This document shows positions 5,147 through 62,961 of a stretch of DNA of 64,000 nt, in pieces. Below the pieces are notes generated by a model. It searched no databases. It had not been told where the DNA came from and saw nothing but the letters and a program-made list of their open reading frames with translations. The DNA is from a virus (lineage: Duplodnaviria > Heunggongvirae > Uroviricota > Caudoviricetes): IMG/VR virus record IMGVR_UViG_3300019935_000001, positions 36,145 to 100,144 of that record. One strand, 5' to 3'. The position numbers and the translations under genes were made by a program. Each line of letters begins with the position of its first letter. Position 1 is the first letter of the stretch.

Positions 5147-5170
5147 TATATAAGTCAGCTATTACTTATA
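5147..5170. promoter_or_regulatory. Palindromic promoter/operator element upstream of the cobT-like gene (TATATAAGTCAGCTATTACTTATA)
   Basis: Family member 20 nt before the ATG at 5189. Confidence 0.5.
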
Positions 5171-5188
5171 TTAAAGACGAGAGCGAAT

Positions 5189-7360
5189 ATGAACGGAAAG
5201 CAAAAACGTATACAGGTGATCAGAGAAGCGATGCTCAAGGTGGCCCGAATTATGGCCGGTCGTGGAATCAAGATCACTCAGGCGGGCACTGGTGCTTTTG
5301 TTCGGTATAACAGTCACACTGGCTGTATCGAAAGGATCAACATTCCGATGATCCCGGACGATGCCAGCGAAGATTTGATCCACGCAACGCATGGTTTCCT
5401 GGATCACGAGATCGGGCATGTGCTTTTTACTGAGTACGAATGCTTTGCAAAAGCGAACAGGGCCAAATGCGGCGTCTTGTTCAACATTGCGGAAGACACC
5501 TATGTTGAGCGAATGATGCAGTCCGAGTTCACAGGTTCAATCAGTAACCTGGGCAAGTCATGCCAAATCATGACTGAAAGGTACATTGAGCCGAAGCTCC
5601 GGGAGCTGCTGGCGCACACCGTTCCAACCGAAAAGGATTGGTGGGGGCTGTTATGTGCAACCTCTATCCGGGCAATAGCCGGGCAGGAGCACTTCATCGA
5701 TTACATGAACCAGGACGATAAGTGGGATCTGATCCCGAACTTCGGAAAGGTTCTGCGAAAGCACGAAGCTGAGATCAAGGCGATCAGTAGTTCACAGGAT
5801 TCGTATGAAGTGGCATTGAAGATCAAACAGGACATGCTGGCAGCTGAGCCCGAGGAGCAGGACAGTGAGCCAGACCAGTCCGGCGGTGACGATCAGCAGA
5901 GCGGTGGAGAAGGTAAAGCTGAAAAGCCGCAGGGTGACAGTGAAGGCGAAACCGATGATGGCACCCGAGCAGACGATACCTTCTCGAAAGGTGAAGGTGA
6001 AAGCTCTGGCGAAGAAGAAAAAGATGATTCTTCTTCATCTAGTAGCAACACACAACATAACAAAGACAGTGAAGATGATGACCAGTCAGACGAATCGGAT
6101 GCTGATAGCGATGACTCAAAGGGCGAGTCCGGCAGTGCTGGCTCCGATAGCGCTGAAGAAGGTGATGGTGAATCCGACGAAGGCCCTGGTGCCGGTGATA
6201 GTTCGGGGGATGGTTCAGACGATGATGAAGACTCTGAATCAGAAGGCAGATCAGGGGGTGCAGGCTCGTCAGCTGGCGGCGATGACGCAGGTGAAGGCGG
6301 CGATAGCGAGATTGATGCAGATGATGTGATTAATGACCCGATGGCTCCGTTGCTGACTGAATCAGAGGTGGAGAGCATGGGTGAAGACTTCGACGATGCG
6401 ATGACAAAGGTTATCGGCGAGATGTCAGCTGATGCACTTAGAGGCTCTGAAGAATATGTGCCGTTCACACGCGACTGGGACGTTATCGAGCCACTGAAGC
6501 TATCAAGAAACTACGATCCGAATCTGGCCGACAAGGTTGCTGATACAGTCAATTACATGGTTGGCACGATGGCGAAAAGTCTGGAGCGTGCATTTCGTGC
6601 AGCCAACCGATCCCGCTGGGAAGGCGGTAAGAAGTCTGGCCGTATTAACAGCGCCGCACTATCCCGATTACTGGCAAACGACCCACGGGTGATGCGTACC
6701 CGCCAGGAGATGAAGACTCGTGATGTAGCTGTTTCTCTATTGGTGGACTGCTCCGGCTCTATGAGTGGGAAGAAGATGGAGGTTGCGTGTCAGACTGCGT
6801 GGGCGCTGGGCGAGGTGCTATCAAAGCTGAATTTGCCTTGTGAGATACTGGGGTTCACAACCTGCAGAATCAAAAACCAGTTCGACCATTTGGAGAAGGA
6901 GCTGGCTGATGTATTCCGTGACGGTACAGGTCAGCAATTCAGCAGGTTCGAGCCGATCTATATACCTATATTCAAATCATTTGATGAGCGGTTTGGTACG
7001 GCAGCTAAAGCACGCCTTGCGGATGCCGCATACGAGGGTATGCGGCGGAAGATGAACTGCAATATTGATGGCGAATCTCTGCTGTACGCAGCCGAGCGCC
7101 TGCGGAAGCGCCCGGAGCCAGGAAAGGTAATGATTGTGTTGTCAGACGGAGCCCCGGCCGGTGTAGGTAAACAACTTGAAGCTCACCTGAAGAAGGTGGT
7201 CAAAGATCTCAATACCGAAGGCATCAACACTGTCGGGATCGGCATCATGAGTCAGGCGGTGAGATCTTACTACCCCCGCCATGTAATCCTGAACAAAGTA
7301 GAGGACCTCCCAAAGGCAGTTGTAGGGGAGCTGCGGGAGGCAATTCTGGCGAAAGACTGA
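5189..7360 (+). CDS. CobT-like protein with C-terminal VWA domain and long acidic low-complexity linker
   Basis: 723 aa. N-terminal CobT-like region. D/E/S-rich low-complexity segment (nt about 5850-6330). C-terminal VWA domain with MIDAS motif DCSGSMSG. Paired with a CobS-like AAA ATPase. Confidence 0.75.
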   Translation: MNGKQKRIQVIREAMLKVARIMAGRGIKITQAGTGAFVRYNSHTGCIERINIPMIPDDASEDLIHATHGFLDHEIGHVLFTEYECFAKANRAKCGVLFNIAEDTYVERMMQSEFTGSISNLGKSCQIMTERYIEPKLRELLAHTVPTEKDWWGLLCATSIRAIAGQEHFIDYMNQDDKWDLIPNFGKVLRKHEAEIKAISSSQDSYEVALKIKQDMLAAEPEEQDSEPDQSGGDDQQSGGEGKAEKPQGDSEGETDDGTRADDTFSKGEGESSGEEEKDDSSSSSSNTQHNKDSEDDDQSDESDADSDDSKGESGSAGSDSAEEGDGESDEGPGAGDSSGDGSDDDEDSESEGRSGGAGSSAGGDDAGEGGDSEIDADDVINDPMAPLLTESEVESMGEDFDDAMTKVIGEMSADALRGSEEYVPFTRDWDVIEPLKLSRNYDPNLADKVADTVNYMVGTMAKSLERAFRAANRSRWEGGKKSGRINSAALSRLLANDPRVMRTRQEMKTRDVAVSLLVDCSGSMSGKKMEVACQTAWALGEVLSKLNLPCEILGFTTCRIKNQFDHLEKELADVFRDGTGQQFSRFEPIYIPIFKSFDERFGTAAKARLADAAYEGMRRKMNCNIDGESLLYAAERLRKRPEPGKVMIVLSDGAPAGVGKQLEAHLKKVVKDLNTEGINTVGIGIMSQAVRSYYPRHVILNKVEDLPKAVVGELREAILAKD

Positions 7361-7372
7361 TTTACCTGTAAA

Positions 7373-7411
7373 AACAGAACAAGAAAGTTGAGTCCCCTTG
7401 CTCTGTTTTTT
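7373..7411 (+). terminator. Rho-independent terminator after the cobT-like gene
   Basis: Stem AACAGAACAAG / CTTGCTCTGTT followed by a T6-7 run. Confidence 0.55.
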
Positions 7412-7446: not shown

Positions 7447-7471
7447 CGACACACTAGAGACGGACAGAAGA

Positions 7472-8683
7472 ATGACGACCAAAGCTATCAACTGCGAAAT
7501 CTGTGGCGCATCGGTTCACACGATCAAAAAGCACCTGCGTGACGAGCACGAAGAGTGGACTCTGGAAAAGTATCAGGAAGAGTTCCCGGACGCTCCAATC
7601 TTCTCTGAGCTGGCGCTGCGGAAGATTGAAGAGGCCCGCAGTAGAACAAAAGCATCGGTCACGCAACTGGCAGAAGCTAATCCGGCTCAGCAGATCATCG
7701 AGCAGCAGAGCGTTAAGGTCGGAAAGATCGAGATGGGCAAAGCGTTCCGTCTGGGCAACACGAAAGCGACAGTCTCCCAAAAGTCTGGAAACCCGATCAT
7801 GATCACTCAGCTGCAGCGGGATAGCGTCAACTCGCCAGATATGATCCCGGAGTTCGATGATGGCTATATCTTCGACATTGAAGTCCTGAAAACGCTGTTG
7901 ATGGGCATCGAGCTGAGCATTCCTACTTACCTGTATGGTCATGCCGGTTTGGGAAAATCAACCATCTTTGAGCAGATTGCATCTGTCACCAACCGCCCGA
8001 TTCGTCGTGTGCAGCATACGGTGAATACAGAGGAATCTCACATCGTTGGTCAGTACGTTGTGAATCATGTGGAAGACCCGAAGACGGGCGAGCTGAAGGC
8101 GAAGACTGAGTTCCAGCTCGGCGATCTGCCGCTGGCGATGATGAACGGTGAGATCTTCCTTGCCGACGAGTACGACCGTGCCTATCCGTCTGTACTGTCT
8201 GTATACCAGGCAGTGCTGGAGGGTAAGCCCCTGCATATCAAGGATGCACCCGAAGAGCTGCGCGTGATCAAACCACATCCGCAATTCAGATTCGTAGCGA
8301 CCGGCAACACAAACGGCGCAGGTGACGACACCGGCTTGTATCAGGCTACGGTCGTACAGGACGCTGCGACATTTGAACGCTTTGGAATCGTTGAACGCAT
8401 CGACTACATGCCGAAGAAGCAGGAGGTTGCAATACTCCGAGCCAAGACCGGTTTGCTGGAAGAAGACGCCTCGGACATCGTGAAGTTTGCTACGCATATC
8501 CGGAAAGACGCCTTCCCGAACGAAGTGTCTCTGACCATCGGCCCGCGTGTGCTACTGAATATTGCCCGCGTCGGTATCGCCCGATTCAACACGCTGAAAG
8601 GTATCGAGGTTGCATACGCGAACCGACTGCCGGAAGCCGAGCGCCAGGCTGCTATGAACTATGCGCAGCGGATCTTCGGCTAA
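7472..8683 (+). CDS. CobS-like / MoxR-family AAA+ ATPase
   Basis: 403 aa. Walker A GHAGLGKST and MoxR-like architecture. Conserved leader ACACACTAGAGAC before the ATG. Confidence 0.75.
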   Translation: MTTKAINCEICGASVHTIKKHLRDEHEEWTLEKYQEEFPDAPIFSELALRKIEEARSRTKASVTQLAEANPAQQIIEQQSVKVGKIEMGKAFRLGNTKATVSQKSGNPIMITQLQRDSVNSPDMIPEFDDGYIFDIEVLKTLLMGIELSIPTYLYGHAGLGKSTIFEQIASVTNRPIRRVQHTVNTEESHIVGQYVVNHVEDPKTGELKAKTEFQLGDLPLAMMNGEIFLADEYDRAYPSVLSVYQAVLEGKPLHIKDAPEELRVIKPHPQFRFVATGNTNGAGDDTGLYQATVVQDAATFERFGIVERIDYMPKKQEVAILRAKTGLLEEDASDIVKFATHIRKDAFPNEVSLTIGPRVLLNIARVGIARFNTLKGIEVAYANRLPEAERQAAMNYAQRIFG

Positions 8684-8693: not shown

Positions 8694-9269
8694 ATGACAC
8701 GACCACAAAATGCACCAGGCTGTTACGGCGTGGGCATTGCCTCCATGAAGAGTCCTGTCTGTAAAGAATGCGCAGCTCGTGAGGGTTGCGCAGAACGAGC
8801 TGTAGAGAACCTGCAGCTCGCTTCCGAGACGGTTGATGTAACCGATTACCTCGCAGTACATGGCCTGGCGCCAAAGCATAAGGGCGAGATGCCCCGCCAC
8901 TATCTAGCAAAGGTGAAAGTCCGGAAGGCGACTCAGCAGGAGCTGAGCATGTTCACAACTATGCCCGCAAAGGCTCGATCCATTGCAGAGTCATTGGTGA
9001 AGAAGAACATCTGTCTTCACACGAGCCTATCAACGAACCAGAACCCCTTTAACACAAACAAACCTCAGTACCTGAAGCCCGTATTCGACATGATACTGAA
9101 CTCCGGGGCGGTGTCCCGCCGCTCGATTATCGACGCGATCCGCTTATCTGGCAGCTCTGCTGCAACTCAGCGATCTCAGCTGTCAACTGCAATAGGGCTA
9201 CTGGAAGGCACCGGAGTCCTGATCAGAGATGGCGCTGAAAATTACAAGGTAGCAAACCGTGACATTTAA
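8694..9269 (+). CDS. Hypothetical protein with N-terminal Cys cluster (zinc-ribbon-like) and C-terminal wHTH-like region
   Basis: Start moved to ATG 8694 (AGGAG RBS at 8682-8686). Cys pairs CYGVG..CKEC..C. Confidence 0.45.
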   Translation: MTRPQNAPGCYGVGIASMKSPVCKECAAREGCAERAVENLQLASETVDVTDYLAVHGLAPKHKGEMPRHYLAKVKVRKATQQELSMFTTMPAKARSIAESLVKKNICLHTSLSTNQNPFNTNKPQYLKPVFDMILNSGAVSRRSIIDAIRLSGSSAATQRSQLSTAIGLLEGTGVLIRDGAENYKVANRDI

Positions 9270-12200
9270 CCTGACGCACTACATTGGTTGCCGCACCCAC
9301 TTCAGTCTGGGCGAAAGCATCCTGTCCCCTAAGCGGGCCGTTAATGAGCTGTCCGGCATTGCGCCGAGCATGACGATTACCGACCTGAACTCTGTAAATG
9401 CTCTGCCGAAGTCCTACAAGGAGGCGAAGAGCGACGATTTGAATCTGAATTTTGGCGCTGTCTTTAAGGTCGTTGATGACCTGGAGTGGCGGAAGCCAAA
9501 GAAGGGTGAGAAAAAGACAGTTAACCATTTCTTCTCACCTCGACTGATCGCCAAGAATGTAGATGGCATGAAGGACATCATGCACTTGCTGTCCGTATCG
9601 AATGATGCAGACCACTTCTACATGACACCACAATGCTCCATTGAGGAGCTGATCGAGGCAGCTTCACGCGGCAACGTGTACGTGACCACCGGGGACACGG
9701 ATTCGCTGTTTGCGCACCCGGAATACAGAACAAAGCTAGTGCAGCTGGTACGCGCTCTGAAAGCGTCTGATTTGCTGTTTGAAGTCGTTCCAGTCTGCAC
9801 GGCATATTATGACCGTCTTAACGAAACGACGATCAGAGTTGCAGAGAGACTGTCTGCAGCCATGATCGTCACGCGACCGATCTATTACAGCTCCAGCATG
9901 AGCGGCACCCGCAACGCCATGTACTGCGTGAAGAATCGTAGCCAGGTAACAGAGCGCTGGCGCTCCGAGCCTGCAGTGAACAACCTGCACCCCCTGGTTG
10001 CTGCAGACATGGAGCAGGAGCTGAGCAACCTGATAGATCGAATGGTGCTGCGCGACCTGGATCGTGATGCTGTGACTGAAGCCCTGCACCGCGCTGTCGA
10101 TACCACCAACGCTCTGCCTGAAAAGCTGAACTACGCCTGGGAACCATATGACATCTGTCTACCTTCCATGAGTGATGATCCGTTTGGTGGGCTGGTAGAG
10201 ATCGTAAAGCAAGGCTGGACAGACCGGATCGAAAAGGTGGTATACGGGTTCCAACCAGATCAGAGCCAGCTACCGGAGTATCGGGAGCGCCTGAAGTACG
10301 AACTATCTGTCTTGAAGCGCATGGGCTTTGAGAACTACTTCCTTCTGGTGCATCAGGTGGTGTCGCAGGCTAAATCCATGAACATCATGGTAGGCCCGGG
10401 ACGAGGATCTGTAGGTGGATCACTCGTCGCATTTTTGATGGGGATCACCGATGTTGACCCTATCCGCTTTGGCCTGATCTTTGAACGATTCATCAACCCG
10501 GATCGACTCGACCTTCCTGATGCCGACCTCGACTTTATGTCCTCCCGCCGTGAAGACATCATTAAATGGTTGGTCAAAGAGTATGGCCAGGATTATGTGT
10601 GTGGCATCAGTAACTACGGTGAGCTTGGTGCATCTTCGGCACTAAGGAGCGCAGGTAAGATCCACGGCCTGACCGAAACCGATGTTTCATGCTCCAAACA
10701 GGTGCCGAAAGAGCACGGTTCCAGCAAGTCACTGGAAGAAGCGAGAGAAGAGGTTCCGGCAATCAAGGTCTTCGCAGATAAGCACCCGGAAGTGTGGGCA
10801 GACGCCTGCAACCTGCAGGGCATCTTCAACGTTTACGGCCAGCACGCTGCAGGTGTTGTAGTGGCCGGCGAACCCATCATTGAACGTGCTGTGGTTGAAG
10901 TCCGCAAAGGCGGTCAGCTCTGCAACTGGGACAAAAGCGTGGTCGAAGAGTTCGGCCTGGTTAAGCTCGATGTGTTGGGCCTGAGTAACCTGGATGTACT
11001 GCGCCTGGCAAAGGACTACATCAAAGAGCGTCATGGCGTAGCAATCGACTACGAGGATGTTCCGCTGGATGATCCGGACGTTCTGGCTGCATTCGGTGAG
11101 GGCAAGACAAACGCCGTGTTCCAGTTCGAGTCTGGCGGTATGAAGGGCCTGCTGAAGTCACTGGCAGAGTCCGGAAGCCTGACGTTTGAAGACATCGCAG
11201 CGGCAACCGCTCTATTCCGTCCGGGCCCAATAGACGCTGGCCTGATGGATCAGTATGTCGCCATCAAAAACGGCAACATGACAGAGACGTACCCGCATCC
11301 GATTTGTGAAGGCGCGCTGCGAGAAACATACGGGGTAATGGTCTATCAGGAGCAGGTAATGCAGATCGCTCGGGATCTGTCGGGCTTCTCGATGGCTGAA
11401 GCTGACAAGCTGCGTAAAGCGATCGGTAAGAAAGACGCCGACCTGATGGCATCAATGGGCGAGAAGTTCGTGCAGGGTGCTCAGGAGTCGGGCATGGCCG
11501 AAGTATCTGCACAGGCATTGTGGGATGACATCCTCGGCTTCGCGGCTTACTCCTTCAACAAGTCTCACTCTGTCGCCTACACGATGATCTCCTACCTGAC
11601 GATGTGGCTGAAGGTAAAGTACCCGGCAGAGTTCTTTGCCGCCTCAATGTCGATCCTGAAAGAAGAGAAGCTGCCTGGCCTGGTGCGTGACTGTACCGAA
11701 GCTGGCTTGATCGTAGTGCCCCCGGACATTAACCGCTCCACTGACAGGTTCGAGATTGGCTATGACGGTGCCAGACAGTGTGATTCTCTGATTATCCCGT
11801 TCCAGCGATTGAAGGGTCTATCCGAGAAGGCGAGCGCGGCGATTGTCGAGGCCCGTGAGAAGCGGAAAGAAGAGCAGGGCGATAGTCGCTTTGTTTCAAA
11901 GAATGACTTCCTGGGCTATGTGGTGAAGCGGGTGTGCAATGTCCGGGTACAAAGTGCCCTGGATGCGGTCGGTGCTTTCGCGGAAATCGAAGGTCAGATT
12001 CCAGCTCTGCACCCGGATCGAATCAAAGATCAGAAGACCCTGCTACCGGGACTGATCGCCAGCAATGTGAAGGCGGACAGAAAGATCGACCTGTCACCTT
12101 TCGTTCGGCGGGAGCTGGTCGGGCTGATGCAGGAAGCAAAAGACTGCTGCGAAACCTTCAAGGGTGAAACCGTTGTCGGCCCAGCAATGGCTAAAGGTCG

Positions 12201-12660
12201 CGTACCGAAATTCATGGTCGTGATGGATGCACCGAACTGGGGCGAGAAAGATGCTGGCGTCATGTTGAAGGGAAAAGCCAGCAGAGACGTGCTGACTGCC
12301 CTGGACGAAGCCGGGCTCAAGCCTAGCGAGGGTTACTTTACGGCTCTGTCGAAAATGATGAAGCCGAAAGGTGAGAAGCAGATACCACAGCAAATGCTGA
12401 TCGACTTTGGCCCTATCCTGGCGCAAGAGATCGAGCTGCTGAAGCCACCGGTGATTGTGGCGCTCGGAACGGCTGCGGCCCGCTTCCTTCTGCCTGATCT
12501 GAAAGGTGGTTGGGAAGAGATCGCAGGTACAAGCCACTACGATGCCAAGCGGGACTGCACGGTGGTGATCGGGTGCAACCCGTCAATGGTGTATTTCGAT
12601 CCCGACCGGATCAACATTATCGTGGACGCATTTGAAAAAGCACGGGAGATGACAGAATGA
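9259..12660 (+). CDS. dnaE: DNA polymerase III alpha-subunit-like replicative polymerase (DnaE family) with C-terminal UDG-superfamily-like domain
   Basis: 1133 aa. N-terminal PHP motif HYIGCRTHFSLGESIL. Palm/fingers region GRGSVGGSLVAFLMGITDVDPIRFGLIFERFINPDR. The last roughly 170 aa align to family-4/5 uracil-DNA glycosylases with altered motifs (MDAPN for GEGPG; NPS for HPS). GTG start. Confidence 0.85.
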   Translation: MTFNLTHYIGCRTHFSLGESILSPKRAVNELSGIAPSMTITDLNSVNALPKSYKEAKSDDLNLNFGAVFKVVDDLEWRKPKKGEKKTVNHFFSPRLIAKNVDGMKDIMHLLSVSNDADHFYMTPQCSIEELIEAASRGNVYVTTGDTDSLFAHPEYRTKLVQLVRALKASDLLFEVVPVCTAYYDRLNETTIRVAERLSAAMIVTRPIYYSSSMSGTRNAMYCVKNRSQVTERWRSEPAVNNLHPLVAADMEQELSNLIDRMVLRDLDRDAVTEALHRAVDTTNALPEKLNYAWEPYDICLPSMSDDPFGGLVEIVKQGWTDRIEKVVYGFQPDQSQLPEYRERLKYELSVLKRMGFENYFLLVHQVVSQAKSMNIMVGPGRGSVGGSLVAFLMGITDVDPIRFGLIFERFINPDRLDLPDADLDFMSSRREDIIKWLVKEYGQDYVCGISNYGELGASSALRSAGKIHGLTETDVSCSKQVPKEHGSSKSLEEAREEVPAIKVFADKHPEVWADACNLQGIFNVYGQHAAGVVVAGEPIIERAVVEVRKGGQLCNWDKSVVEEFGLVKLDVLGLSNLDVLRLAKDYIKERHGVAIDYEDVPLDDPDVLAAFGEGKTNAVFQFESGGMKGLLKSLAESGSLTFEDIAAATALFRPGPIDAGLMDQYVAIKNGNMTETYPHPICEGALRETYGVMVYQEQVMQIARDLSGFSMAEADKLRKAIGKKDADLMASMGEKFVQGAQESGMAEVSAQALWDDILGFAAYSFNKSHSVAYTMISYLTMWLKVKYPAEFFAASMSILKEEKLPGLVRDCTEAGLIVVPPDINRSTDRFEIGYDGARQCDSLIIPFQRLKGLSEKASAAIVEAREKRKEEQGDSRFVSKNDFLGYVVKRVCNVRVQSALDAVGAFAEIEGQIPALHPDRIKDQKTLLPGLIASNVKADRKIDLSPFVRRELVGLMQEAKDCCETFKGETVVGPAMAKGRVPKFMVVMDAPNWGEKDAGVMLKGKASRDVLTALDEAGLKPSEGYFTALSKMMKPKGEKQIPQQMLIDFGPILAQEIELLKPPVIVALGTAAARFLLPDLKGGWEEIAGTSHYDAKRDCTVVIGCNPSMVYFDPDRINIIVDAFEKAREMTE

Positions 12661-12922: not shown

Positions 12923-12986
12923 ATCGACGCTGCTTTTTATTAGTATAAGCAGCGTCGATTGAGACAACACACACGAGAGACAAGCT

Positions 12987-13574
12987 ATGACCACAGATAT
13001 TTCAGATGCCGAGTTAGACGCTATCGCAGCCGAAGCTCTGGCGGAAGAAGGTCTTGAAGAGGTGGAAACTCCGGCTCCGAAAAGGCAAGCGAATCCAGTG
13101 AAGACGTTCATCAAGCAGAGCCAGCTGAAAGAAGACCTTACGTTCTCTCAGCATAACCTGAACGATGCAATGATGAACCAGGCTTCACTGTATTCGTTCT
13201 ATTCCTCCTGCTCAGCGAAGGCACAGCTGCAGGCTGACCGAATGAAAGTTGAAGTGGAGCGAGTAGAGGCGCAGATCGACAATGAGCTGCGCGAAGAAGC
13301 GAATCAGGATGGCAAGAAGGTAACTGAAGCGTTGCTGGCTAAGCAGATCCGCCTGGACCCACGTTATCAGAGGGCTGTTTCTAACCACAACGAAGCGAAG
13401 ATGGTTGCGTCAATGACAAAATCGACCACAGATGCCTTCGCTCAGCGCCGGGATATGCTGGTGCAGTTGGGCAAAGATCAGCGTGAAGAGCGCCTGGGTG
13501 AGTTGCGCGAACGAGCTAATCAGGAGCGGATGACAGACCTCAAAGACGCAGCAATGAGTAAAGTAGGGCGCTGA
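12987..13574 (+). CDS. Hypothetical coiled-coil protein
   Basis: 195 aa. Conserved leader CAACACACACGAGAGAC before ATGACC. Confidence 0.5.
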   Translation: MTTDISDAELDAIAAEALAEEGLEEVETPAPKRQANPVKTFIKQSQLKEDLTFSQHNLNDAMMNQASLYSFYSSCSAKAQLQADRMKVEVERVEAQIDNELREEANQDGKKVTEALLAKQIRLDPRYQRAVSNHNEAKMVASMTKSTTDAFAQRRDMLVQLGKDQREERLGELRERANQERMTDLKDAAMSKVGR

Positions 13575-14659: not shown

Positions 14660-15619
14660 ATGACTAAATCTTTCATGCTCATTGATGGAAACAGCCTTGG
14701 TTACGCTGCAGCAAATGCTTCACCGCTGAGCGCAAACGGCCAGCCGGTTCACGCCATTTTTCATACCCTGAAAATGATCCGCTCTGCCATCAACACCTGG
14801 AGCGACGAGTACCGCACTCCGCTCATTCTGTGGGACGGCAAAGAGTATTGGCGTAAAGACCTGTACCCGGAGTACAAGCAGCGCGATGACAACAACGAGA
14901 AGGCAAAAGCTGTCAGTGAAGACTACAAGCGCCAGCGCCCGGAGCTGATCAAGGCTCTGAAGATGCTGGGGCTGACCCAGATGATCGGTCGCAACTATGA
15001 GGCTGACGATCTGGCGGGCTATATCAGCCGTTTCTTTTCGGCAAAAGGGTACAAGGTGTTGCTGGTATCGGGCGACAAAGATTGGATTCAGCTGGTTAAC
15101 AGAAACGTGACCTGGTTCGATCCTATCAGAGATCGCAAATGCACCCGCAACACCATTGAAGATCTGACAGGCTTTGCATCCCCGGCAGACTTTCTGCAGG
15201 GCAAAGCTCTGATAGGTGACACCTCGGATAACATTCCGGGTATCGACGGTATCGGCCCTAAAGCTGCACCGTTGATCATGCAAGAGTTCGGCGGCGTTGA
15301 GGGTCTATTCGAGGCTTTCAATACGCACGGCGAGCTGGACAAGAAAGCAGGCACACTGCCTGAATCTATGAGCCGCTACCGCAAGAAGATTAACGCCTTC
15401 TGTAGCTCTCAGGAACTGCGCGACCGGTACGATCTGAATATTAAGCTGATGAACCTGCTTGATGTTCAGCTATCAATGAGCGATCTGACCACCGTTCAAT
15501 CCGAACCGAACATGTTGGCATTCCGGGAGTTCTGCGAGTACCACGCTTTCGCCTCCATTCTGCGCAATATGCGTGACTGGGAGCGCCTTTTCAAAAACAC
15601 ACTAGAGACGAAATCATGA
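14660..15619 (+). CDS. 5'-3' exonuclease / flap endonuclease (RNase H-like, PIN + H3TH)
   Basis: 319 aa. LIDGNSL, DKDWIQL and GIDGIGPKAA (H3TH) motifs typical of Pol I 5' nuclease / T4 RNase H. Confidence 0.8.
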   Translation: MTKSFMLIDGNSLGYAAANASPLSANGQPVHAIFHTLKMIRSAINTWSDEYRTPLILWDGKEYWRKDLYPEYKQRDDNNEKAKAVSEDYKRQRPELIKALKMLGLTQMIGRNYEADDLAGYISRFFSAKGYKVLLVSGDKDWIQLVNRNVTWFDPIRDRKCTRNTIEDLTGFASPADFLQGKALIGDTSDNIPGIDGIGPKAAPLIMQEFGGVEGLFEAFNTHGELDKKAGTLPESMSRYRKKINAFCSSQELRDRYDLNIKLMNLLDVQLSMSDLTTVQSEPNMLAFREFCEYHAFASILRNMRDWERLFKNTLETKS

Positions 15620-16671
15620 GTCAATTCGATGCCCTGTTCGACGCAATTGGTGAGAACGACGAGCGCCAGTCTGTATCCATTTACCTGGATTCCGGCGTAC
15701 CGGAGCTGAACCATGCAGTATCAGGCCGATACCGCGGTGGCTTCGCTGTCGGTCGCCTGTACGAGATCTTTGGCCCTGAATCATGCGGCAAGACTTTCCT
15801 GTCTACCATGCTGATGATCCAGGCTCAGAAGATGGATGGCTTTGCAGGCTTCTCCGATCACGAGCGCAGCTTTGAAGATGGACTGGCTCAGAAGCTGGGC
15901 CTCGAAACCGGCAAGGGTGCTGCATGGGCCTATCGTCGCCCGGACACCCTGGAAGAGTCCTTTGATACGGCTATCGAAGCGATGGCGACGATCCGTGAGA
16001 AGGGGCTGATCCCGGACGAAGCACCGATTGTATGGACGTTCGACTCCATTGCCTCAATGGTTCCGCACTCCGTCCTCTACGACAAGGAAGGCAAGCGCCG
16101 AAAACTGACCTCCCTGAACATGCGTGACAACCTGGGCCTGGCAAAGTCTCTGTCAGATGCGCTGAAACAGTTGTCGGTATTCGCTAACGACTATAACGCG
16201 CTCTGTCTGCTGCTGAATCAGATTCGATTAGATCCGGGAATTATGTTCGGTGATCCGAACGTAACGCCGGGCGGCAAAGCTGCAAAGTTCTACTGTTCAG
16301 GCCGTGTAAGTCTGGGCAAAAAGCACCTGAAAGAAGACAAGAAGGAAACTAAGAAGCTGACCGGTGCCATCGTTTCTGCCCGCACGGTGAAAAACAAAAT
16401 TGTGCACGAAGGCGAAGATGCTCAATGGCGTATGCAGTTCCTGTCCGGTGGTCAGACTATCGTGGACAAGATTGGTACTCTGCTGGACTACTGCATTCGT
16501 GAGAGCTTCATCAAACGTTCTGGTGCTTACCTGGAGTGGGACGGCAAGAAGATCTATGCGAGCCAGCTGAAAACTCAACTGGAGGCTGCTGATGATGGGT
16601 ACGAACAGCTGCTGGCCCTGCTGCCAGAAGACGTTGATCCTGAAGACGGCGATCTGCTGGATGATGTTTGA
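15616..16671 (+). CDS. RecA/UvsX-like recombinase
   Basis: 351 aa. Walker A GPESCGKT (RecA GPESSGKT). ATGA overlap with the FEN gene. Confidence 0.8.
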   Translation: MSQFDALFDAIGENDERQSVSIYLDSGVPELNHAVSGRYRGGFAVGRLYEIFGPESCGKTFLSTMLMIQAQKMDGFAGFSDHERSFEDGLAQKLGLETGKGAAWAYRRPDTLEESFDTAIEAMATIREKGLIPDEAPIVWTFDSIASMVPHSVLYDKEGKRRKLTSLNMRDNLGLAKSLSDALKQLSVFANDYNALCLLLNQIRLDPGIMFGDPNVTPGGKAAKFYCSGRVSLGKKHLKEDKKETKKLTGAIVSARTVKNKIVHEGEDAQWRMQFLSGGQTIVDKIGTLLDYCIRESFIKRSGAYLEWDGKKIYASQLKTQLEAADDGYEQLLALLPEDVDPEDGDLLDDV

Positions 16672-16878: not shown

Positions 16879-16888
16879 CCAGACCAAT

Positions 16889-16935
16889 CTGCTGCTGACC
16901 TCAGACCTTTACAAGATTCTGAGGTCAGCAGCAGA
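16889..16935. repeat. Perfect 18-bp inverted repeat hairpin (TCTGCTGCTGACCTCAGA ... TCTGAGGTCAGCAGCAGA)
   Basis: 18/18 complementary arms with an 11-nt loop and no flanking U-run. A possible factor-dependent terminator or protein-binding palindrome between the recA-like operon and the IS element. Confidence 0.5.
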
Positions 16936-18368: not shown

Positions 18369-18394
18369 TACCGCACCACTAAATTATGACCTTT

Positions 18395-39869: not shown

Positions 39870-39887
39870 CACACTGGAGACAAACAA

Positions 39888-53592: not shown

Positions 53593-55095
53593 ATGTTGTA
53601 CCGGATTATTGTCGCCAAGGGTGCTAACTATGGCCGGGTGCTGGGAGCCCACGTTTCAGATTCCGCTGCAGGTCGTGCCCTGGGCAAAAACAAGCAGGAG
53701 TTTGGAACAGGCTCGGTACTACTAATCGAAACAGACGAGCGACTGGTGCAGGGTGTGTGTTACCCGGATGTTGCCGATCAGGGTATTGCCGATCATCACC
53801 ATAAGTCAGGTATGCGCCTGATGGAACTGGTCATTAAAAACCGGGCCACCGGTGAAGTGCCGGATTGGGTGATTGCCAGCATCATAGATGAAGGCTGGAC
53901 GATGGATTCGCTGAGCCAAGAGTTTGGGCCGCTGGTTCACCAGAAAATGGAGCAGGAGCGCCGCGAGCACCAGAAGCGGGCAGAGCGCTCTGCAATGATT
54001 CACGCAGGTCGCCTCTGGATGAAGAAAGAGATCGATGACCACGTTATCGAGCTGCCAGCCATTACAGGAACCCAAGCTCGCCGCCAATTCTTCACCGTTC
54101 AGATGACTCTGCAGCAGGTTGACCGGCTTTTGACTGCAGATCACAACGATCTGGCCCCTGAAGATCGCAGCCAGCGCAAACTGAACCCGGCACGGGGCAA
54201 AAAGCTGGGCGGGTACATTGTTGGGAACCACGACAGCTACGTTCTGCCGGCCATCACCGTCTGTATCGATCCGGATATGACCTTTGACCCGATTGAAGGG
54301 TTCGGCGGGGCAGTTGGCACCCTGAAAATACCGGTAACGTCTCTGGTCTATATCATTGACGGCCAGCACCGGCGTGAAGGTATCCGGTGGGCCTTGTCCG
54401 CTCAGTCGCTCCGCTGGCAGATGCAGAAGGAGACGATTGCGGTCACCATTTACTACGATGAAGGGCCTGAACGGCGTCAGCAGATGTTCTGTGACATCAA
54501 CTATCCAGCTGTCCGGGTGTCATCCTCTTTGAACATGCTCTACGACCGCCGAAACTCACTGAACCACTGGATTCTCGATATTTTGGCTAAAAATCAGTCA
54601 ATTTGGGGTCGAATTGAGCTGGATAGCGCGAGCGTAGGTGCCCAAAGTTCCAAATTGTGGGCCGTAGTCGCCATGAAGAAGGCTCTCCTCACGGTTTTGG
54701 GGTTGTCAGAAGTGCAATTTTTCACCAAAACCGATGAAAATCGGGCCGAAATGGAAAAGGTGGTCGATAGGTTCTTCGACACTCTGGCAGAATATCTGCC
54801 GCGCTGGGGCATGGTGATAGACCCGGATTGCTCCGCTCCGGACATCAGGAGCGACTATATTGTTGGCCACGCTGTTTTCCTGCAGGCGCTAGCTATCGTT
54901 GCCCGCAAAGCCCAGGAAGAAGAGGGCGGCTGGCAGAAGCTGTCCGGGCTGGCCAAGCTCGACGTAGCGCGAGATTCAGAAGTGTGGGAAGGTAAATGTG
55001 TCGTCAATGGAAGGATGAACCGGTCGGCAGCCGGGGCCAACGCCACTGCGGCAGAAATTTGTAGCCAGATTGGCATAGAAATGGACTGGAGTTGA
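53593..55095 (+). CDS. DGQHR-domain protein (DndB/DpdB-like ParB-Srx fold) with about 150-aa N-terminal extension
   Basis: 500 aa. Signature VYIIDGQHRREGIRWAL followed by FCDINYPAVRVSSSLNMLYD, matching the DGQHR family blocks (iDGQHR ... F.d.N.....s.sl..l.d). Confidence 0.7.
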   Translation: MLYRIIVAKGANYGRVLGAHVSDSAAGRALGKNKQEFGTGSVLLIETDERLVQGVCYPDVADQGIADHHHKSGMRLMELVIKNRATGEVPDWVIASIIDEGWTMDSLSQEFGPLVHQKMEQERREHQKRAERSAMIHAGRLWMKKEIDDHVIELPAITGTQARRQFFTVQMTLQQVDRLLTADHNDLAPEDRSQRKLNPARGKKLGGYIVGNHDSYVLPAITVCIDPDMTFDPIEGFGGAVGTLKIPVTSLVYIIDGQHRREGIRWALSAQSLRWQMQKETIAVTIYYDEGPERRQQMFCDINYPAVRVSSSLNMLYDRRNSLNHWILDILAKNQSIWGRIELDSASVGAQSSKLWAVVAMKKALLTVLGLSEVQFFTKTDENRAEMEKVVDRFFDTLAEYLPRWGMVIDPDCSAPDIRSDYIVGHAVFLQALAIVARKAQEEEGGWQKLSGLAKLDVARDSEVWEGKCVVNGRMNRSAAGANATAAEICSQIGIEMDWS

Positions 55096-55345: not shown

Positions 55346-56185
55346 TTGGTAACAATGAAAATCAGAAGACTGAAGATCAACAACTTCCGGGCATTCGGCC
55401 AGTTTGAATGCGAGTTCGAGCCTGGGATCACCGTTCTGACAGGGCTGAACAGCTCAGGAAAAACAGCGGTTCTGAAAGCCATCATCGTGGCAGCTGGCCA
55501 GGACAGAAAGATTCAGACTTCTGATATTCGCCAGACTCGTTCCTCTGCAGGTTCGGGTCTGATCTCTACAGAGCACCACCTTCCTGTGAACATTGAGGTG
55601 TGGGAAGACAGCGACACAGACCCGATCCTGGTCGCATCCCGTCAAAAGCTGAAAGGCAGAACCTCTCAAGCCGGATACATTGGCCCAATCTGCTACTACG
55701 ACAGTGGCAGGCGGAATATCGACAATCCCTCACCTGAATCCCTGGCCCTGGCCAGACAGGCACTGGACATCGTTCTGGAGCCTGTTGGCTGGAGCAACGT
55801 GCGGTACATTCCCGGTATCGATCAGATCTGTGCAGACCATGACGCTCAGGGTACAGCCCCAGTGGCCGCAATAGGTGGAATCGGAAGTGTCATTGATATG
55901 GTGGCCGGGATCGCCCAGCAGGGCAGCCAGCTGGCTTTGATCGACGGGATAGATTTACACCTGCACCCCAAATGGCAGCAGATGATCCTGCCTGGTCTGG
56001 CAGCGGCCTTTCCCGATCTGCAGCTTATCGTGACGACTCACAGCCCATTAGTGCTGTCTACTGTGAGCCGGAGTCAGATCCGGGTGCTTCCAGATTTCGG
56101 AAATGGAGAGTGCGCAACCGTCCCAGCATGTGAGACGCTGGGCAAAGCCTGCGACGACCTGCTCACTGAGGCGATGGGAAATTAA
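55346..56185 (+). CDS. AAA_21/ABC-type (SMC/RecF-like head) ATPase, 279 aa, with Walker-B Glu replaced by Gly
   Basis: N-terminal IRRLKINNFRAFG..LTGLNSSGKT (Walker A). LALIDGIDLHLHP (Walker B, with D-G where AAA_21 has D-E). H-loop TTHSPLVL. Confidence 0.65.
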   Translation: MVTMKIRRLKINNFRAFGQFECEFEPGITVLTGLNSSGKTAVLKAIIVAAGQDRKIQTSDIRQTRSSAGSGLISTEHHLPVNIEVWEDSDTDPILVASRQKLKGRTSQAGYIGPICYYDSGRRNIDNPSPESLALARQALDIVLEPVGWSNVRYIPGIDQICADHDAQGTAPVAAIGGIGSVIDMVAGIAQQGSQLALIDGIDLHLHPKWQQMILPGLAAAFPDLQLIVTTHSPLVLSTVSRSQIRVLPDFGNGECATVPACETLGKACDDLLTEAMGN

Positions 56186-56520: not shown

Positions 56521-56892
56521 CTACTCAGCTAGATATTTTTCAAGTATCTCTGGTATACCCAGGCTTATAGCCAGCTTCAGAAGGGACTCTTCCAGAACCT
56601 CCGGCTCTGCCTTTACTGCGAACTCAACCTTCCGAGCCTTCCAGTCAAAGGTCTGTGGCATGTTGGAAACAACAACGCAGGCCTGGTCCAGATTGTTGAC
56701 CTTCACCTCTTCAGTGCCACCGTAAATCGAAGTGCTCACCGGCAGCACAGTGGCGCGTCCGGATTTGTTTTGTTCCTTTGTTGAGATAACAAGTGCGGGC
56801 CTGCGCTTGCCAATCTCTTTTCCTGCCTTCGGGTCAAACGTCACGATTACTAAATCGCCCTGACCCGGGATGTATCGACTTACCGATCCCAT
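56521..56892 (-). CDS. pemK: PemK/Kid/MazF-family endoribonuclease toxin
   Basis: 123 aa. GDLVIVTFDPKAGKEIGKRRPALVIS parallels Kid GEIWLVSLDPTAGHEQQGTRPVLIVT. Confidence 0.8.
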   Translation of the reverse strand: MGSVSRYIPGQGDLVIVTFDPKAGKEIGKRRPALVISTKEQNKSGRATVLPVSTSIYGGTEEVKVNNLDQACVVVSNMPQTFDWKARKVEFAVKAEPEVLEESLLKLAISLGIPEILEKYLAE

Positions 56893-57167
56893 TCTGTCTC
56901 CACAGTTTCAAATAGATCGTCAGCCCGAAGGTTAGCCGGAGTCATCCCCGCAATCAGTTCATCCTGAGTGAAGGGAAGTTTATACCTCGGCTTCGCGCGC
57001 GGCGTGACAGCCTTAATGATGATCTCAGTACCTTGCGCCGCGATTTCTACTTCAGCGCCTTTTGTGATACCGGCTCTTTTCATCAGCGCAGCGGGCAGCC
57101 TAATAGCAGAGCTGTTGCCCCACTGACTGACCTGGCCAATGACCCTTCGGGTTTCTCGTGTCGCCAT
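56880..57167 (-). CDS. pemI: PemI/Kis/MazE-family antitoxin (AbrB/SpoVT fold)
   Basis: 95 aa. WGNSSAIRLPAA swapped-hairpin motif. Overlaps pemK by 13 nt. Confidence 0.75.
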   Translation of the reverse strand: MATRETRRVIGQVSQWGNSSAIRLPAALMKRAGITKGAEVEIAAQGTEIIIKAVTPRAKPRYKLPFTQDELIAGMTPANLRADDLFETVETEWDR

Positions 57168-58270: not shown

Positions 58271-58330
<60 letters not shown>

Positions 58331-59734: not shown

Positions 59735-60058
59735 TTAATGAAATGAGCCTGGCAGTTGGCCCAAGGCACCATACTTGTCGTTGAACCAGCGGGCGACACG
59801 AGCCACCGCCGGCTTATCAAGGCGCTTATTGCCAGAGTAGCTCTTCACGGCCTGCTCCAGCAGGTGCATCAGGGACTGCTCCTGGGCAAATTCATCGGGC
59901 GCCAGAGGGTCAGGCATTAGCACGACTGGACACTGACCGTACTTTTCAGCGTATTGTTTCGCAATGGCATCGACTGGGTGCGTCTGCGCCTCCTGGGATT
60001 CTGGCATGTGCGCCGGTGCTGTTTCGATTGCTTGTGGGTTTTCAATTTCGTTGCTCAT
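59735..60058 (-). CDS. Hypothetical protein
   Basis: Start moved to the internal ATG (60058) after the upstream gene stop. RBS GAGAGAAAG. Confidence 0.35.
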   Translation of the reverse strand: MSNEIENPQAIETAPAHMPESQEAQTHPVDAIAKQYAEKYGQCPVVLMPDPLAPDEFAQEQSLMHLLEQAVKSYSGNKRLDKPAVARVARWFNDKYGALGQLPGSFH

Positions 60059-61149: not shown

Positions 61150-62858
61150 ACGGCCTGGAAGCCGTACTTCTGAAAGTTGAAAGGTGCCTTGACGACGTTT
61201 TCGGCAAAGCCCGGTGTAGAGTTGACGATCTCCCGGCGGGCCATTGCGTGGCCTTTCAGGTGCTTGTTGTCGCCATCTTCAAAGTCGATGATGAAGCAGA
61301 CATTCGGGCCAGACTTCTTCGCTCGAAGGCCACGACCGATACGCTGGCGCATTGCCACTTCTGCTTTGCCACCACCGGCCAGAATCACCATTCCGACAGC
61401 AGGCACATCGACACCGACATCCAGGATGGTCGAACCGATCAGGACATCGATCCTTCCGGCTCCCAGATTGTCCAGGGAAGACTGGCGGCTATCCTGCCTG
61501 TGCTCACCACTGATGAACTCGGCGTTCAGCCCGGCTGCTTTCAGCATCTTCAGGAGGCGTTTGCCGTGGGCTGTGTGCTGGATCAGGATCATCACTGGCA
61601 GGCCGTACTTCTTAGCCCGCTGAGCTTCGGAAACGATGAAGGCATTCCGGCCGTCACTCTCAACCACACCGACCTTATAAGCCCGCTGCCAGGGTGTACC
61701 CCGGAACAGGGTTTTAGGTTTTTCAGCGCTGTGGTAGTAGAAATACGGTTTGGCCAGGATGCCTTTGTCGATCAGGTCTTTCTCGCTGATCTGAATGCCG
61801 ATAGGTCCGGTAACGGCCATAAGGCGCATGTTGGCCTCTTCGTCATCCTTCATGAACGGAGTGGCAGTCAGGGCCATCCTGTAAACAGCGTTATGGCACT
61901 GATTCAGGATGTCGTAGAAGCCGTTACCGGATACCTCGTGCGCTTCCTCCAGGGTCACAAACTCCATGGAGCGAAGGAACTCGATAGTTTCGGCACGGCG
62001 ATCAGCCTGACGTTGGACGGCGGCCTTGGCCTTTTTGGCAATCTCTTCGTGCGGGTACTTCGAGCGAACCTTCTTTTCGATGGACTGACGGTACGCTTTG
62101 ATCTGATCCCGAATGTGCTGAGGGGCAATCTTCAGGGCCTGATCGGACGTTGGCAGGTTTTTCTTCTTGAAAATGGTTTCGACAGTCTCTGTGACCTCTT
62201 TTTCGATGGCCTCCAGCTGCTTATCGACCTCCTTTTCAAAAGTCTTCTTCTCCAGTCGTGATGTCAGCGTATCCACGATGGCGAAGTTGATACCGGCCGG
62301 TTCCGGGTTCCACGTTCCGTCACCCAGGATGCCGATCGGTCGATTCTGCTCGCCCATTTGAGCGGCCATCTGGTACATCAGGGACTTCCGGGTCGTGATA
62401 AACAGAGTCGGTCGGTAGATGCGAGCACATGCAAGGCGGAAGATGCGGGACTTACCACCACCGGTGGCCACCCGGGCGATCATCGCCTTCAGATTCACCA
62501 GACGGCGAACCGTATCGAGCTGATATGCGTAGTTCGGATTCTCCGGGAAGTTATCGACCTTCGGGTTTTCCGGCCCCAGGGGCTCGGGAACCGACTTTCT
62601 GACAACCTTCGTGCGAACGCCGCGGGTTTCCAGCTTCTTTTTGATGTAGCGAACGAAGCCCGCCGGGAACGAATCCGTTTTCATCTGATAGAACGAGCTG
62701 TGACCGTCCCAGGAGCCGTTACTGAACATACTTGTGTGCTCGGCACCGGCCACCTTGTACGTCAGCAGATCACTGACGAGCAGACGCACATCGCGATCTG
62801 GGTTAACCAGCTTGGCGACAACTGCGTTGTGCTTGATTGTGGCGATTTTTCCTTTCAT
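61146..62858 (-). CDS. Superfamily-2 DEAH-box DNA helicase (UvsW-like)
   Basis: 570 aa. Motif I TGGGKS, motif II LEEAHE, motif III LTATP. C-terminal helicase domain. Confidence 0.8.
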   Translation of the reverse strand: MKGKIATIKHNAVVAKLVNPDRDVRLLVSDLLTYKVAGAEHTSMFSNGSWDGHSSFYQMKTDSFPAGFVRYIKKKLETRGVRTKVVRKSVPEPLGPENPKVDNFPENPNYAYQLDTVRRLVNLKAMIARVATGGGKSRIFRLACARIYRPTLFITTRKSLMYQMAAQMGEQNRPIGILGDGTWNPEPAGINFAIVDTLTSRLEKKTFEKEVDKQLEAIEKEVTETVETIFKKKNLPTSDQALKIAPQHIRDQIKAYRQSIEKKVRSKYPHEEIAKKAKAAVQRQADRRAETIEFLRSMEFVTLEEAHEVSGNGFYDILNQCHNAVYRMALTATPFMKDDEEANMRLMAVTGPIGIQISEKDLIDKGILAKPYFYYHSAEKPKTLFRGTPWQRAYKVGVVESDGRNAFIVSEAQRAKKYGLPVMILIQHTAHGKRLLKMLKAAGLNAEFISGEHRQDSRQSSLDNLGAGRIDVLIGSTILDVGVDVPAVGMVILAGGGKAEVAMRQRIGRGLRAKKSGPNVCFIIDFEDGDNKHLKGHAMARREIVNSTPGFAENVVKAPFNFQKYGFQAV

Positions 62859-62913
62859 TTCGGGCCTGTCTGGTGTCTGGACGCCTTGCCATTGGAAAGG
62901 CTTATAGAAATAA

Positions 62914-62937
62914 TAGTAAGTCAGTCCTTACTTATAG
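62914..62937. promoter_or_regulatory. Palindromic promoter/operator element (TAGTAAGTCAGTCCTTACTTATAG) in a divergent region
   Basis: Between the minus-strand helicase start (62858) and the plus-strand gene at 62962. Confidence 0.5.
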
Positions 62938-62961
62938 TAAACACATTGTATCGAGTGACAT

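Follow-up and report, generated by a model that had tools for sequence, protein, structure and literature searches.

In this study, we examined a 64,000-nucleotide stretch (the window) of IMG/VR virus record IMGVR_UViG_3300019935_000001, whose 102,745-bp (~103-kb) source replicon is a large phage that also resembles a plasmid (a phage-plasmid), and we relate a sequence block repeated in front of its genes to a candidate small RNA encoded in the same window. The block, a CA repeat followed by GAGAC, lies just 5′ of the start codons of non-structural (early) genes, and its reverse complement is found within a locus that has a promoter-like site and a terminator and is shared by related phages. 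Judging from sequence comparison, we lean somewhat beyond even towards reading the block as a standard early-gene start region that also serves a phage antisense RNA as a shared target. A bolder version, in which this lineage of phage-plasmids with a DnaE-type polymerase runs its early regulon through a universal start region and a master 72-nt antisense RNA, aided by two mRNA 3′ ends, is one that we hold tentatively and at slightly short of even confidence.

The start block and its distribution

The block has the layout (A)CACACA-N1-3-(A/G)GAGAC-N3-10-ATG-ACC. After curation there were 19 strong sites and one weak site (35388), every one immediately before a start codon and all in a uniform orientation relative to the gene; gene starts were taken in part from our own gene caller and cross-checked against independent calls where those existed. 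A preliminary description of this DNA had put the number of block genes above 20. All of the + strand starts that it cited do carry the block, as does one absent from its list (15616, where the block lies within the 3′ end of the preceding gene), but the count comes to 19 strong plus one weak. Its three minus-strand examples fared unevenly, 50490 having the full block and 52076 and 53362 only GGAGAC/AGAGAC with no CA repeat. With up to 2 mismatches the 14-mer ACACACATAGAGAC has 9 matches vs 0.37 expected, and the looser pattern ACAC-N1-5-GAGAC has 21 matches on the + strand vs 1.8 expected. Among the 19 strong sites, the distance to the start codon is 11-15 nt (once 18 nt) from the last CACA and 3-10 nt from GAGAC, the gap between CA repeat and GAGAC varies from 1 to 3 nt, and there is little conservation 5′ of the CA repeat.

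Conservation also extends past the start codon. The earlier statement that most genes begin Met-Thr is not correct, as only 21 of 77 (27%) do (threonine overall, 5.2%), but such starts are tied to the block, being found in 14 of the 22 genes with CACAC upstream vs 7 of the 55 others (Fisher p = 1.8e-5). Because GACC(A) is retained near the start even where it falls in untranslated spacer (24331, 31574, 32546), the conserved signal is one of nucleotides and not of threonine. Our data bear out the proposal that the block is a translation-start element conserved beyond a normal ribosome-binding site, since the CA repeat and GACC cannot pair with the 3′ end of 16S rRNA; pairing of the block with that end as its explanation was set aside, as GAG or GGAG alone pairs. 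Within GAGAC, the GAG/GGAG portion does serve as the proposed Shine-Dalgarno part, though a weak one, with a median pairing energy of -2.9 kcal/mol to ACCUCCUUA and more than half of the sites pairing via GAG alone. From -25 to -1 the block start regions are 71% A+C, and from -30 to +20 their folding energy averages -3.2 kcal/mol vs -7.4 kcal/mol for other genes (p = 2e-5). As an open start region whose Shine-Dalgarno sequence is weak, the block both fits a CA-rich enhancer and is highly accessible to a pairing partner.

To place the block among gene classes, we added ~10 kb past the window end and ~8 kb before the window start by look-ups of the end genes, bringing the replicon sequence covered to ~82 of ~103 kb. 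The flanks hold 2-3 more copies, among them those of two genes before the window start (DNA ligase and a small gene), and the block is absent from all 12 genes examined past the window end (L313, the same phage), including those for terminase, a major-capsid-like protein and neighbouring structural proteins. What had been described as a general gene-start signal thus holds for non-structural (early) genes, ligase included, and not for these 12. Most genes lacking it either show translational coupling to the gene before them or fall into other classes. Three structural genes have a different start, GGAGAAG..A-ATGCCAC (Met-Pro; L313 17295-17315, 18264-18284 and 19236-19256), which may represent a second, late-class start signature.

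Protein look-ups identified syntenic metagenomic relatives, L310 (45% GC), L317 (43%), L319 (43%) and L320 (42%), the window itself having 52% GC; L319 and L320 come from one sample and may be parts of one phage, so the relatives number three or four. Their protein identity to the window is 61-66% for a Band_7 protein and 38-51% for a 213-aa protein. They retain CACACA-(A/T)AGAG(A/G) before nrdB, thyA, the 213-aa and 260-aa genes and several small genes, with ATGACT instead of ATGACC in the AT-rich ones, and the set of genes that carry the block is only partly conserved between them. Beyond this group, the block was not seen in L309, the one phage inspected among unrelated phages that share only the Band_7 gene. 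IMG/VR scans with the exact 14-mer and with CACAC-N3-GAGAC-N4-8-ATGACC gave single, chance-level matches per contig and no close relative, and alignment of the 213-aa protein gave no match in metagenome contigs or viral contigs. No relative at the DNA level was found by megablast against deposited phages and plasmids. The nearest named relatives by DnaE protein are the Pseudomonas phage nickie group (47% identity), a Rhizobium phage group (~42%) and SSU5-like phage-plasmids (36%); a DnaE probe of phages and IMG/VR returned relatives only at <=52% identity, and the loci inspected (nickie-like ones included) were without the repeated block.

A separate element is found upstream of many block genes, a palindrome of the form TAAGTCAG-N2-4-CTGACTTA, often beside TATAAA/TATAAT-like boxes (16 pattern matches vs 1.75 expected). 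It sits 0-32 nt 5′ of these genes, at variable distance, also precedes the capsid-like gene (L313) and the open reading frame (ORF) after the terminase gene, and is retained in L310 and L317. It is probably a promoter or operator, comparable to a mycobacteriophage element discussed below (the extended SAS). In L091 and L107, two more distant DnaE phages, a similar palindrome provides a TTGACT -35 box.

Two side observations concern the sequence of the block and its surroundings. Across the whole window, GAGAC is under-represented relative to dinucleotide shuffles (59 vs 88.6 on the + strand, 38 vs 61.9 on the minus strand), and since this deficit persists despite the ~20 start-block copies, the motif is avoided outside gene starts on both strands; possible reasons are avoidance of internal sites resembling Shine-Dalgarno sequences or RNA targets, or of a GTCTC/GAGAC restriction site. 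Directly 5′ of a start block there is often a GC-rich hairpin whose T run is poor or missing (29678-29704, which includes a G10 run at 29678-29687; 42385-42416; 50517-50535 on the minus strand), with the same placement in L310 (8290-8310 and 11610-11630), and such hairpins may terminate transcription in part, stabilise the RNA at its 5′ end or mark sites of processing.

A candidate antisense RNA complementary to the block

The sole exact copy of the 14-mer that is not in gene orientation lies on the minus strand at 36760-36773, and the + strand around it has, at sequence level, the make-up of a discrete gene, with a promoter, a terminator and no conserved ORF (Table 1). In order, the + strand reads TTGTAA-N17-GATAAT, ~7 nt, AGAUUCAGAUCGUUUGGUCACGGUUUGUCUCUAUGUGUGU, then GGCGCGGCUCUUCGGGGUCGCGCC-UUUUAUUU, and the 26 nt 5′ of the terminator mirror the complete prototype block, including its spacer, start codon and following GACCA. 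Promoter and terminator were each flagged independently by consensus scan, and promoter-like sites are otherwise depleted in 20 kb (4 vs 13.6 expected). The locus is shared by L310, L317 and L320 (L340 being identical to L320), each with TTGnnn-N17-(G/A)ATAAT, and independent gene callers leave the gap that holds the small RNA empty in the relatives. A minus-strand ORF using the reverse block as its start is 24 aa or 42 aa long or absent, depending on the phage; the corresponding micro-ORF in the window (36680-36754) was set aside, as it is not conserved.

The four RNAs are predicted to fold alike, into a 5′ hairpin with the loop UU(G/A)GUC, a single-stranded CUCU(A)UGUGUG and a terminator, so that the loop (UUGGUC in the window) and the single-stranded seed, both complementary to the block, are exposed in all four folds. 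RNAalifold gave 14 pairs, 7 of them with compensatory changes (four sequences), and once the alignment is fitted to the model, pairing covers 94.5% of cells, with double-sided changes in 8 of the 14 pairs. Covariation scores 0.774 vs 0.372 in shuffles (0 of 500 reach 0.774), with slid controls much lower. The covariance model scores 71-88 bits at the loci of the four phages, a DNA pattern search for the small RNA returned one further copy only (L340), and Rfam had no match at gathering score, its best E-value matches being far below the cut-offs.

The same covariance model also gave matches of 19-26 bits in four ~60% GC DnaE phages (L091 1163-1226, L074 1022-1087, L107 2383-2451 and L096 1112-1175). 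These are mutually syntenic and lie on the DnaE strand ~9 kb upstream of dnaE; each comprises a stem-loop, (U)UCCUC-N-UGUGUG and a terminator, with a promoter-like site upstream in three of the four. These loci could be remote homologues of the anti-block RNA in which the anti-Shine-Dalgarno core is canonical, and such look-alikes in distant phages suggest that the principle is older than the lineage.

As for targets, the 26-mer pairs at <= -25 kcal/mol with 18 of 77 start regions vs 0.4% of random 40-nt windows. Curated blocks, strong or weak, are present at 17 of them, the exception being 9259. Complementarity runs through the spacer to +7, with GGUC of the loop matching the conserved GACC, and it accounts for the otherwise odd conservation from +4 to +7. 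RNA and target have also changed together, GGTCA going with ATGACC here and AGTCA or AGTCT with ATGACT in the AT-rich relatives, just as CTCTATGTGTG goes with the commonest CACATAGAG here and CTCTTGTGTG with CACAAGAG blocks in the relatives. When the RNAs and start regions of four phages were paired in all combinations, the window RNA was best on the window start regions (-33.9 vs -30.8, -27.9 and -23.2 kcal/mol).

Reverse copies of the block are not confined to this locus. Among the five strongest + strand terminators in 30-50 kb, three have an anti-block 0-9 nt upstream; neither the second nor the third anti-block (Table 1) has a minus-strand start codon behind it, and the second has a syntenic equivalent in L310 (18709-18755). 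Read on the + strand, the minus-strand block at 50485-50516 also gives an anti-block followed by a hairpin, here with no T run.

From these features we infer an RNA that is made, pairs in trans and represses. A small RNA transcribed from 36734-36805 would have the block as its common target, and this would keep the block uniform. First contact would be a kissing interaction, in which the loop UUGGUC and single-stranded CUCUAUGUGUGU meet GACC(A) and ACACACAUAGAG of the mRNA; pairing would then zipper across the Shine-Dalgarno sequence and the start codon and exclude the 30S subunit from all block mRNAs at once. As an outcome, early genes would be silenced in the plasmid-prophage state or shut off late in infection, and the mRNA 3′ ends at 38526-38566 and 48583-48632, with their shorter anti-blocks, may add to the pool. 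The A+C-rich, unstructured block probably also aids ribosome loading by itself.

Several observations weigh against this model. Since the motif's reverse complement is itself part of the RNA, there is some circularity in the complementarity statistic, and the covariation rests on only four distinct homologues, in an alignment fitted to the model and leaning towards structure. For L310, L317 and L320, the phage's own RNA does not stand out clearly as the best partner of its start regions, and a good block is found on fewer of the relatives' genes (1-5 of ~30 sampled). Hairpins followed by blocks are common in forward orientation too (29723, 50490), so an inverted start module could be the origin of the reverse copy. 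Action of the anti-block might also be limited to the next gene in cis (36814-36826), counter to which L317 has no block on that gene. Finally, one RNA would have to titrate at least 20 mRNAs.

Table 1. Coordinates of the start blocks, the candidate RNA locus, further anti-blocks and other features of the window. Duplex energies are for pairing with the anti-block RNA.
Feature	Position	Strand	Sequence or remark
Sigma70-like promoter	36699-36727	+	TTGTAA-N17-GATAAT; consensus scan
Candidate ~72-nt antisense small RNA (5′ end inferred)	36734-36805	+	Hairpin with loop UUGGUC, single-stranded UAUGUGUGU, terminator
Anti-block segment	36748-36773	+	TGGTCACGGTTTGTCTCTATGTGTGT; reverse complement of ACACACATAGAGAC-AAACC-GTGACCA
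Intrinsic terminator	36774-36805	+	GGCGCGGCTCTTCGGGGTCGCGCC then TTTTATTT; top-ranked terminator of 30-50 kb
Second anti-block, then directly terminator	38526-38566	+	TGCTCTAATGTGTGC, then AGCGCCCTTCGGGGCGCT-TTTTTT; anti-block 38526-38540 overlaps stop of gene 37751-38533
Third anti-block, 9 nt before terminator	48583-48632	+	TTCTCAGTGTGTGTG, then GCCCGGCCATGTGTCGGGC-TTTTT; anti-block 48583-48597, 7 nt after stop of gene 48286-48576
Block, AAA-ATPase/porphyrin-like gene	7449-7477	+	ACACACTAGAGAC-N10-ATGACG; duplex -27.2 kcal/mol
Block	12964-12992	+	ACAACACACACGAGAGAC-AAGCT-ATGACC; duplex -35.6 kcal/mol
Block, UvsX-like gene	15596-15621	+	AACACACTAGAGAC-GAAATC-ATGAGT; within 3′ end of upstream exonuclease gene; duplex -25.1 kcal/mol
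Block, SbcD-like gene	19943-19974	+	ACTTA-CACACGCACACAGAGGGGAC-AGAAA-ATGACC; directly after palindrome arm
Block, RuvC-like gene	24308-24336	+	ACCAACACACATACGAGATGACC-ATGATT; GACC in spacer
Block, nrdA	27408-27434	+	CACACACATGGGAGAC-AAACT-TTGACC; duplex -36.6 kcal/mol
Block, nrdB	29705-29728	+	CCACACTAGAGAAG-ATCA-ATGACC; directly after GC hairpin; kept at L310, L317 orthologues
Block, Band_7 gene	31548-31579	+	AACCAACACACATAGAGATGACCACC-ATGAAA; GACC in spacer; start 31574 backed by independent gene call
Block, thyA	32526-32551	+	ACCACACACTGGAGACGACC-ATGTTT; kept at L310, L317 orthologues
Degenerate block	35360-35393	+	ACCAATACACGCATAGCAGAGATAAATC-ATGACC; duplex -31.4 kcal/mol
Block, 213-aa gene	36814-36834	+	CACACTGGAGAC-GCC-ATGACG; gene just 3′ of small RNA
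Block, 260-aa gene	37731-37756	+	CACACATAGAGGATTGAAAG-ATGACA
Block	38803-38831	+	AACACACACAGAGAC-AGACCGAA-ATGACC; best duplex of all, -37.3 kcal/mol
Block	39869-39893	+	AACACACTGGAGAC-AAACAA-ATGACC
Block	40907-40932	+	CACACATACAGGAGC-AAACT-ATGACC
Block with exact 14-mer	42417-42449	+	CAACAACACACATAGAGAC-AGAGAATT-ATGACC
Block	44746-44772	+	ACACACAGAGAGAC-GGAAATG-ATGACC; independent gene call puts start at 44767
Block	46828-46859	+	CACAACGACACACAAGGAGAC-AAATT-ATGACC
Weaker block	49486-49508	+	AACACATAGAAAC-TGCT-ATGAAC; ATGACC 6 bases further 3′
Block, 53-aa ORF	50485-50516	minus	ACACAACACACATATAGAGAC-AGAAT-ATGACC; after hairpin; gene also called by independent caller
Clear palindromes (start coordinates)	5151, 7418, 12903, 13614, 19910, 27357, 30896, 35343, 38709, 49470, 50552, 52100, 59207, 62917		Mostly intergenic, 5′ of early genes
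ParA and ParB	1601-3826	minus	
DnaE-type polymerase	9259-12660		
Second ParB-like protein	62962-63648		

Alternative readings and known systems

Part of what we observe would be expected if the block were a purely cis-acting extended ribosome-binding site, in which an A+C-rich CA-repeat enhancer, probably read by ribosomal protein S1, makes up for the weak Shine-Dalgarno sequence so that early genes are initiated strongly and uniformly, the reverse copies being incidental. CA-rich translational enhancers defined by composition are known, among them CA multimers and the omega leader of tobacco mosaic virus; CA repeats and CAA-rich leaders act in this way in E. coli, where Martin-Farmer and Janssen are said to have described CA repeats as enhancers in 1999. 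Such enhancers raise initiation where the Shine-Dalgarno sequence is weak, and the block resembles them as an unstructured A+C-rich sequence next to a start with a weak Shine-Dalgarno sequence. Its low structure, its A+C content, its mostly GAG-only pairing and the spacing of GAGAC to ATG, which suits a Shine-Dalgarno role, are all on this side, and the CA-rich enhancer suggested in the preliminary description stays compatible with the data because block start regions are so unusually unstructured. Enhancer function, however, requires composition and not the exact sequence ACACACATAGAGAC, whereas the block conserves exact sequence, spacing and the +4 to +7 bases; an enhancer alone leaves unexplained the conserved GACC(A), even when untranslated, the restriction to one gene class, and a reverse copy conserved with promoter, terminator and covarying stems in four phages. 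As a full account we consider it unlikely, though far from negligible, and it may coexist with the antisense model.

A dedicated trans-acting factor encoded by the phage, as the preliminary description proposed in the form of a RegA-type repressor, remains plausible, but the evidence points to an antisense RNA and not to a RegA-like protein. T4 RegA is a translational repressor of many early mRNAs with loose AU-rich targets, and T4 RegB is an endoribonuclease recognising GGAG within the Shine-Dalgarno sequence; both share with our model one phage factor acting on many early start regions, RegA being nearest in logic, and differ from it in being proteins with loose AU-rich or GGAG targets, whereas the factor proposed here is an RNA and no homologue of either was seen. 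That the block is an operator of a phage protein, be it a RegA-like protein that represses or activates translation on RNA or a regulator that binds DNA, would agree with a specificity that exceeds the needs of the ribosome, with confinement to one gene class, with the RegA precedent and with the many small ORFs without known function in 38-50 kb. Pfam and PHROG results contained no RegA-like or RNA-binding domain, several of the small ORFs in 38-50 kb lying outside the scan; such a protein would not predict conserved reverse-complement copies just before terminators, and a site on DNA needs no single orientation 11-15 nt from start codons, so we hold this reading to be quite improbable. We think it more improbable still that the block is a junction for shuffling early-gene cassettes by short shared homology, with no regulatory role. 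T4-type phages have stem-loops associated with early promoters that offer an analogue, the block flanks many small, poorly conserved ORFs (38-50 kb), often has GC hairpins just 5′ of it and is carried by a gene set only partly conserved between relatives; against this, a stretch of 14-26 nt whose spacing varies is short for homologous exchange, core genes (nrdA, nrdB, thyA, SbcD-like, ligase) have the block too, at orthologous positions, and the small RNA gene is left unexplained. The least credible reading, to which we attach hardly any weight, is that of a promoter, which the preliminary description had raised from a likeness to T7/SP6 promoters; either a single-subunit RNA polymerase of the phage or a host polymerase in modified form would use it to make very short or leaderless mRNAs. 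CACAC(T)ATAGAGA and CACAC(T)ATAGAGAC do resemble, locally and superficially, the -8 to +6 region of promoters of the T7/SP6/K11 kind (for SP6 and K11, ...CACTATAG(A/G)...), the distance to ATG would permit transcript starts near it, and in L317 and L319 the CA repeat often follows ACTTATTAATAAA, a possible transcript start. Yet no ORF of polymerase size and no single-subunit polymerase domain was found in the ORF lists and domain tables for ~82 of ~103 kb, conservation covers ~14 nt with variable internal gaps in place of a rigid ~23-bp (-17 to +6) promoter and has no conserved -17 to -9 region, the 3-10 nt spread to ATG is unlike precise leaderless starts, the copy at 15616 lies in coding sequence within a translationally overlapping gene pair, and a distinct promoter-like palindrome stands 0-32 nt upstream.

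Two other kinds of site were also set aside, CsrA sites because most block copies have no GGA, and Hfq A-R-N or A-N repeats because only some copies are in register.

Anatomically, the block comes closest to the start-associated sequence (SAS) of Cluster K mycobacteriophages, a 13-bp asymmetric repeat with 11-19 copies per genome that lies 3-9 bp 5′ of (mostly ATG) starts in one orientation, holds a Shine-Dalgarno core, is conserved beyond 16S pairing and is found at non-structural genes only (PMC3203893; PMC11373665). About half of the SAS copies have an upstream inverted repeat carrying a promoter, and the function of SAS is still stated to be unknown (PMC3203893; PMC11373665); the extended SAS is interpreted, in the 2024 Adephagia study, as a promoter of SigA-like type whose inverted repeat resembles an operator (PMC11373665). 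All of these features are matched by the block, an asymmetric repeat of at least 13 bp in more than 10 copies, near starts and in one orientation, with a Shine-Dalgarno core and absent from the structural genes examined. The consensus sequences (GGGATAGGAGCCC for SAS, ACACACATAGAGAC for the block) are, however, unrelated, and lineage and host phylum also differ; the block is therefore an analogue of SAS and not a member, and by this comparison a SAS-like architecture would have arisen independently in an unrelated phage-plasmid. Conservation of the block, unlike that of SAS, extends into the second codon, and the block has a conserved complementary small RNA gene, to which nothing comparable has been described for SAS. 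Among mycobacteriophages, Anaya (L348) has one reverse SAS with 1 mismatch (GGCCTCCTATCCC on the + strand, record position 59870-59882), which lies in a 385-bp gene-free gap between gp96 and gp97, while Pixie and TM4 have none within 3 mismatches; a reverse partner as a general feature of Cluster K SAS is thus unsupported.

For the mechanism, the nearest precedent is the c4 antisense RNA of P1/P7, which pairs in trans around a ribosome-binding site and blocks translation, with its complementary bases in loops (Citron and Schuster 1990, as described in PMC12197685). The c4 RNA is likewise a small RNA of phage-plasmids that blocks a ribosome-binding site in trans in an immunity-type role (PMC12197685); as described there, it acts on one operon (icd/ant) through two short boxes, whereas here there are at least 20 start regions and up to 26 nt of pairing. 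The candidate RNA has no sequence or Rfam relationship to c4. The small RNAs of PAK_P3 were rejected as a precedent, as the paper on them shows that they are not regulators directed against ribosome-binding sites.

What is new here is that a SAS-like block comes for the first time with a concrete partner, a conserved candidate small RNA complementary to the entire block. If the model is true, nature would here provide an example of a single phage antisense RNA controlling the translation of a whole gene class, as a switch for immunity or timing that is based on RNA. It would bear on how phage-plasmids silence or time lytic genes, on the annotation of gene starts and small RNAs in metagenomic phages, and on synthetic designs that regulate many genes via one standard 5′ region, and would offer a testable model for the mycobacteriophage SAS, known since 2011 and with its function unexplained.

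Gene content of the replicon and further features

Besides the partition proteins and the DnaE-type polymerase (Table 1), the window encodes a helix-turn-helix Rep-like protein, a resolvase, MazEF, a SocA-type antitoxin, a CobT-like protein and an AAA ATPase. Its replication, recombination and nucleotide set comprises a gp32-like single-stranded DNA-binding protein, UvsX-like, SbcCD-like and RuvC-like proteins, NrdA/NrdB, ThyA, dihydrofolate reductase, and MazG-like and DnaQ-like proteins. Before the window start lie genes for ligase, primase and a DnaB-like helicase, and past its end those for terminase, a major-capsid-like protein and further structural proteins. Neither tRNA genes nor Rfam matches were found in the window.

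Defence or addiction cargo includes a DndB-like protein (53593-55095) with an SMC/AAA ATPase (55346-56185), a MazE/PemK-type toxin-antitoxin pair (56521-57167, minus strand) and the antitoxin with a SocA/Panacea domain (25390-25920, minus strand). At 16700-19900 there is a low-GC island (~45%), whose IS200/IS605-type transposase-like ORF (17105-18313, minus strand, PHROG 2331) and adjoining 153-aa ORF are inserted after the recombinase gene and ahead of the SbcD-like gene. A tandem (GTTA/TTAG)n repeat (~58283-58315, minus strand) lies directly 5′ of a 324-aa minus-strand gene starting at 58270. Finally, the Band_7 (stomatin/HflC-like) gene adjoining the block at 31574 is also present, at 47-70% identity, in the unrelated phages L309, L311 and L318, of which L311 is P22-like and L318 lambdoid-like in gene content, and it appears to be a mobile cargo gene.

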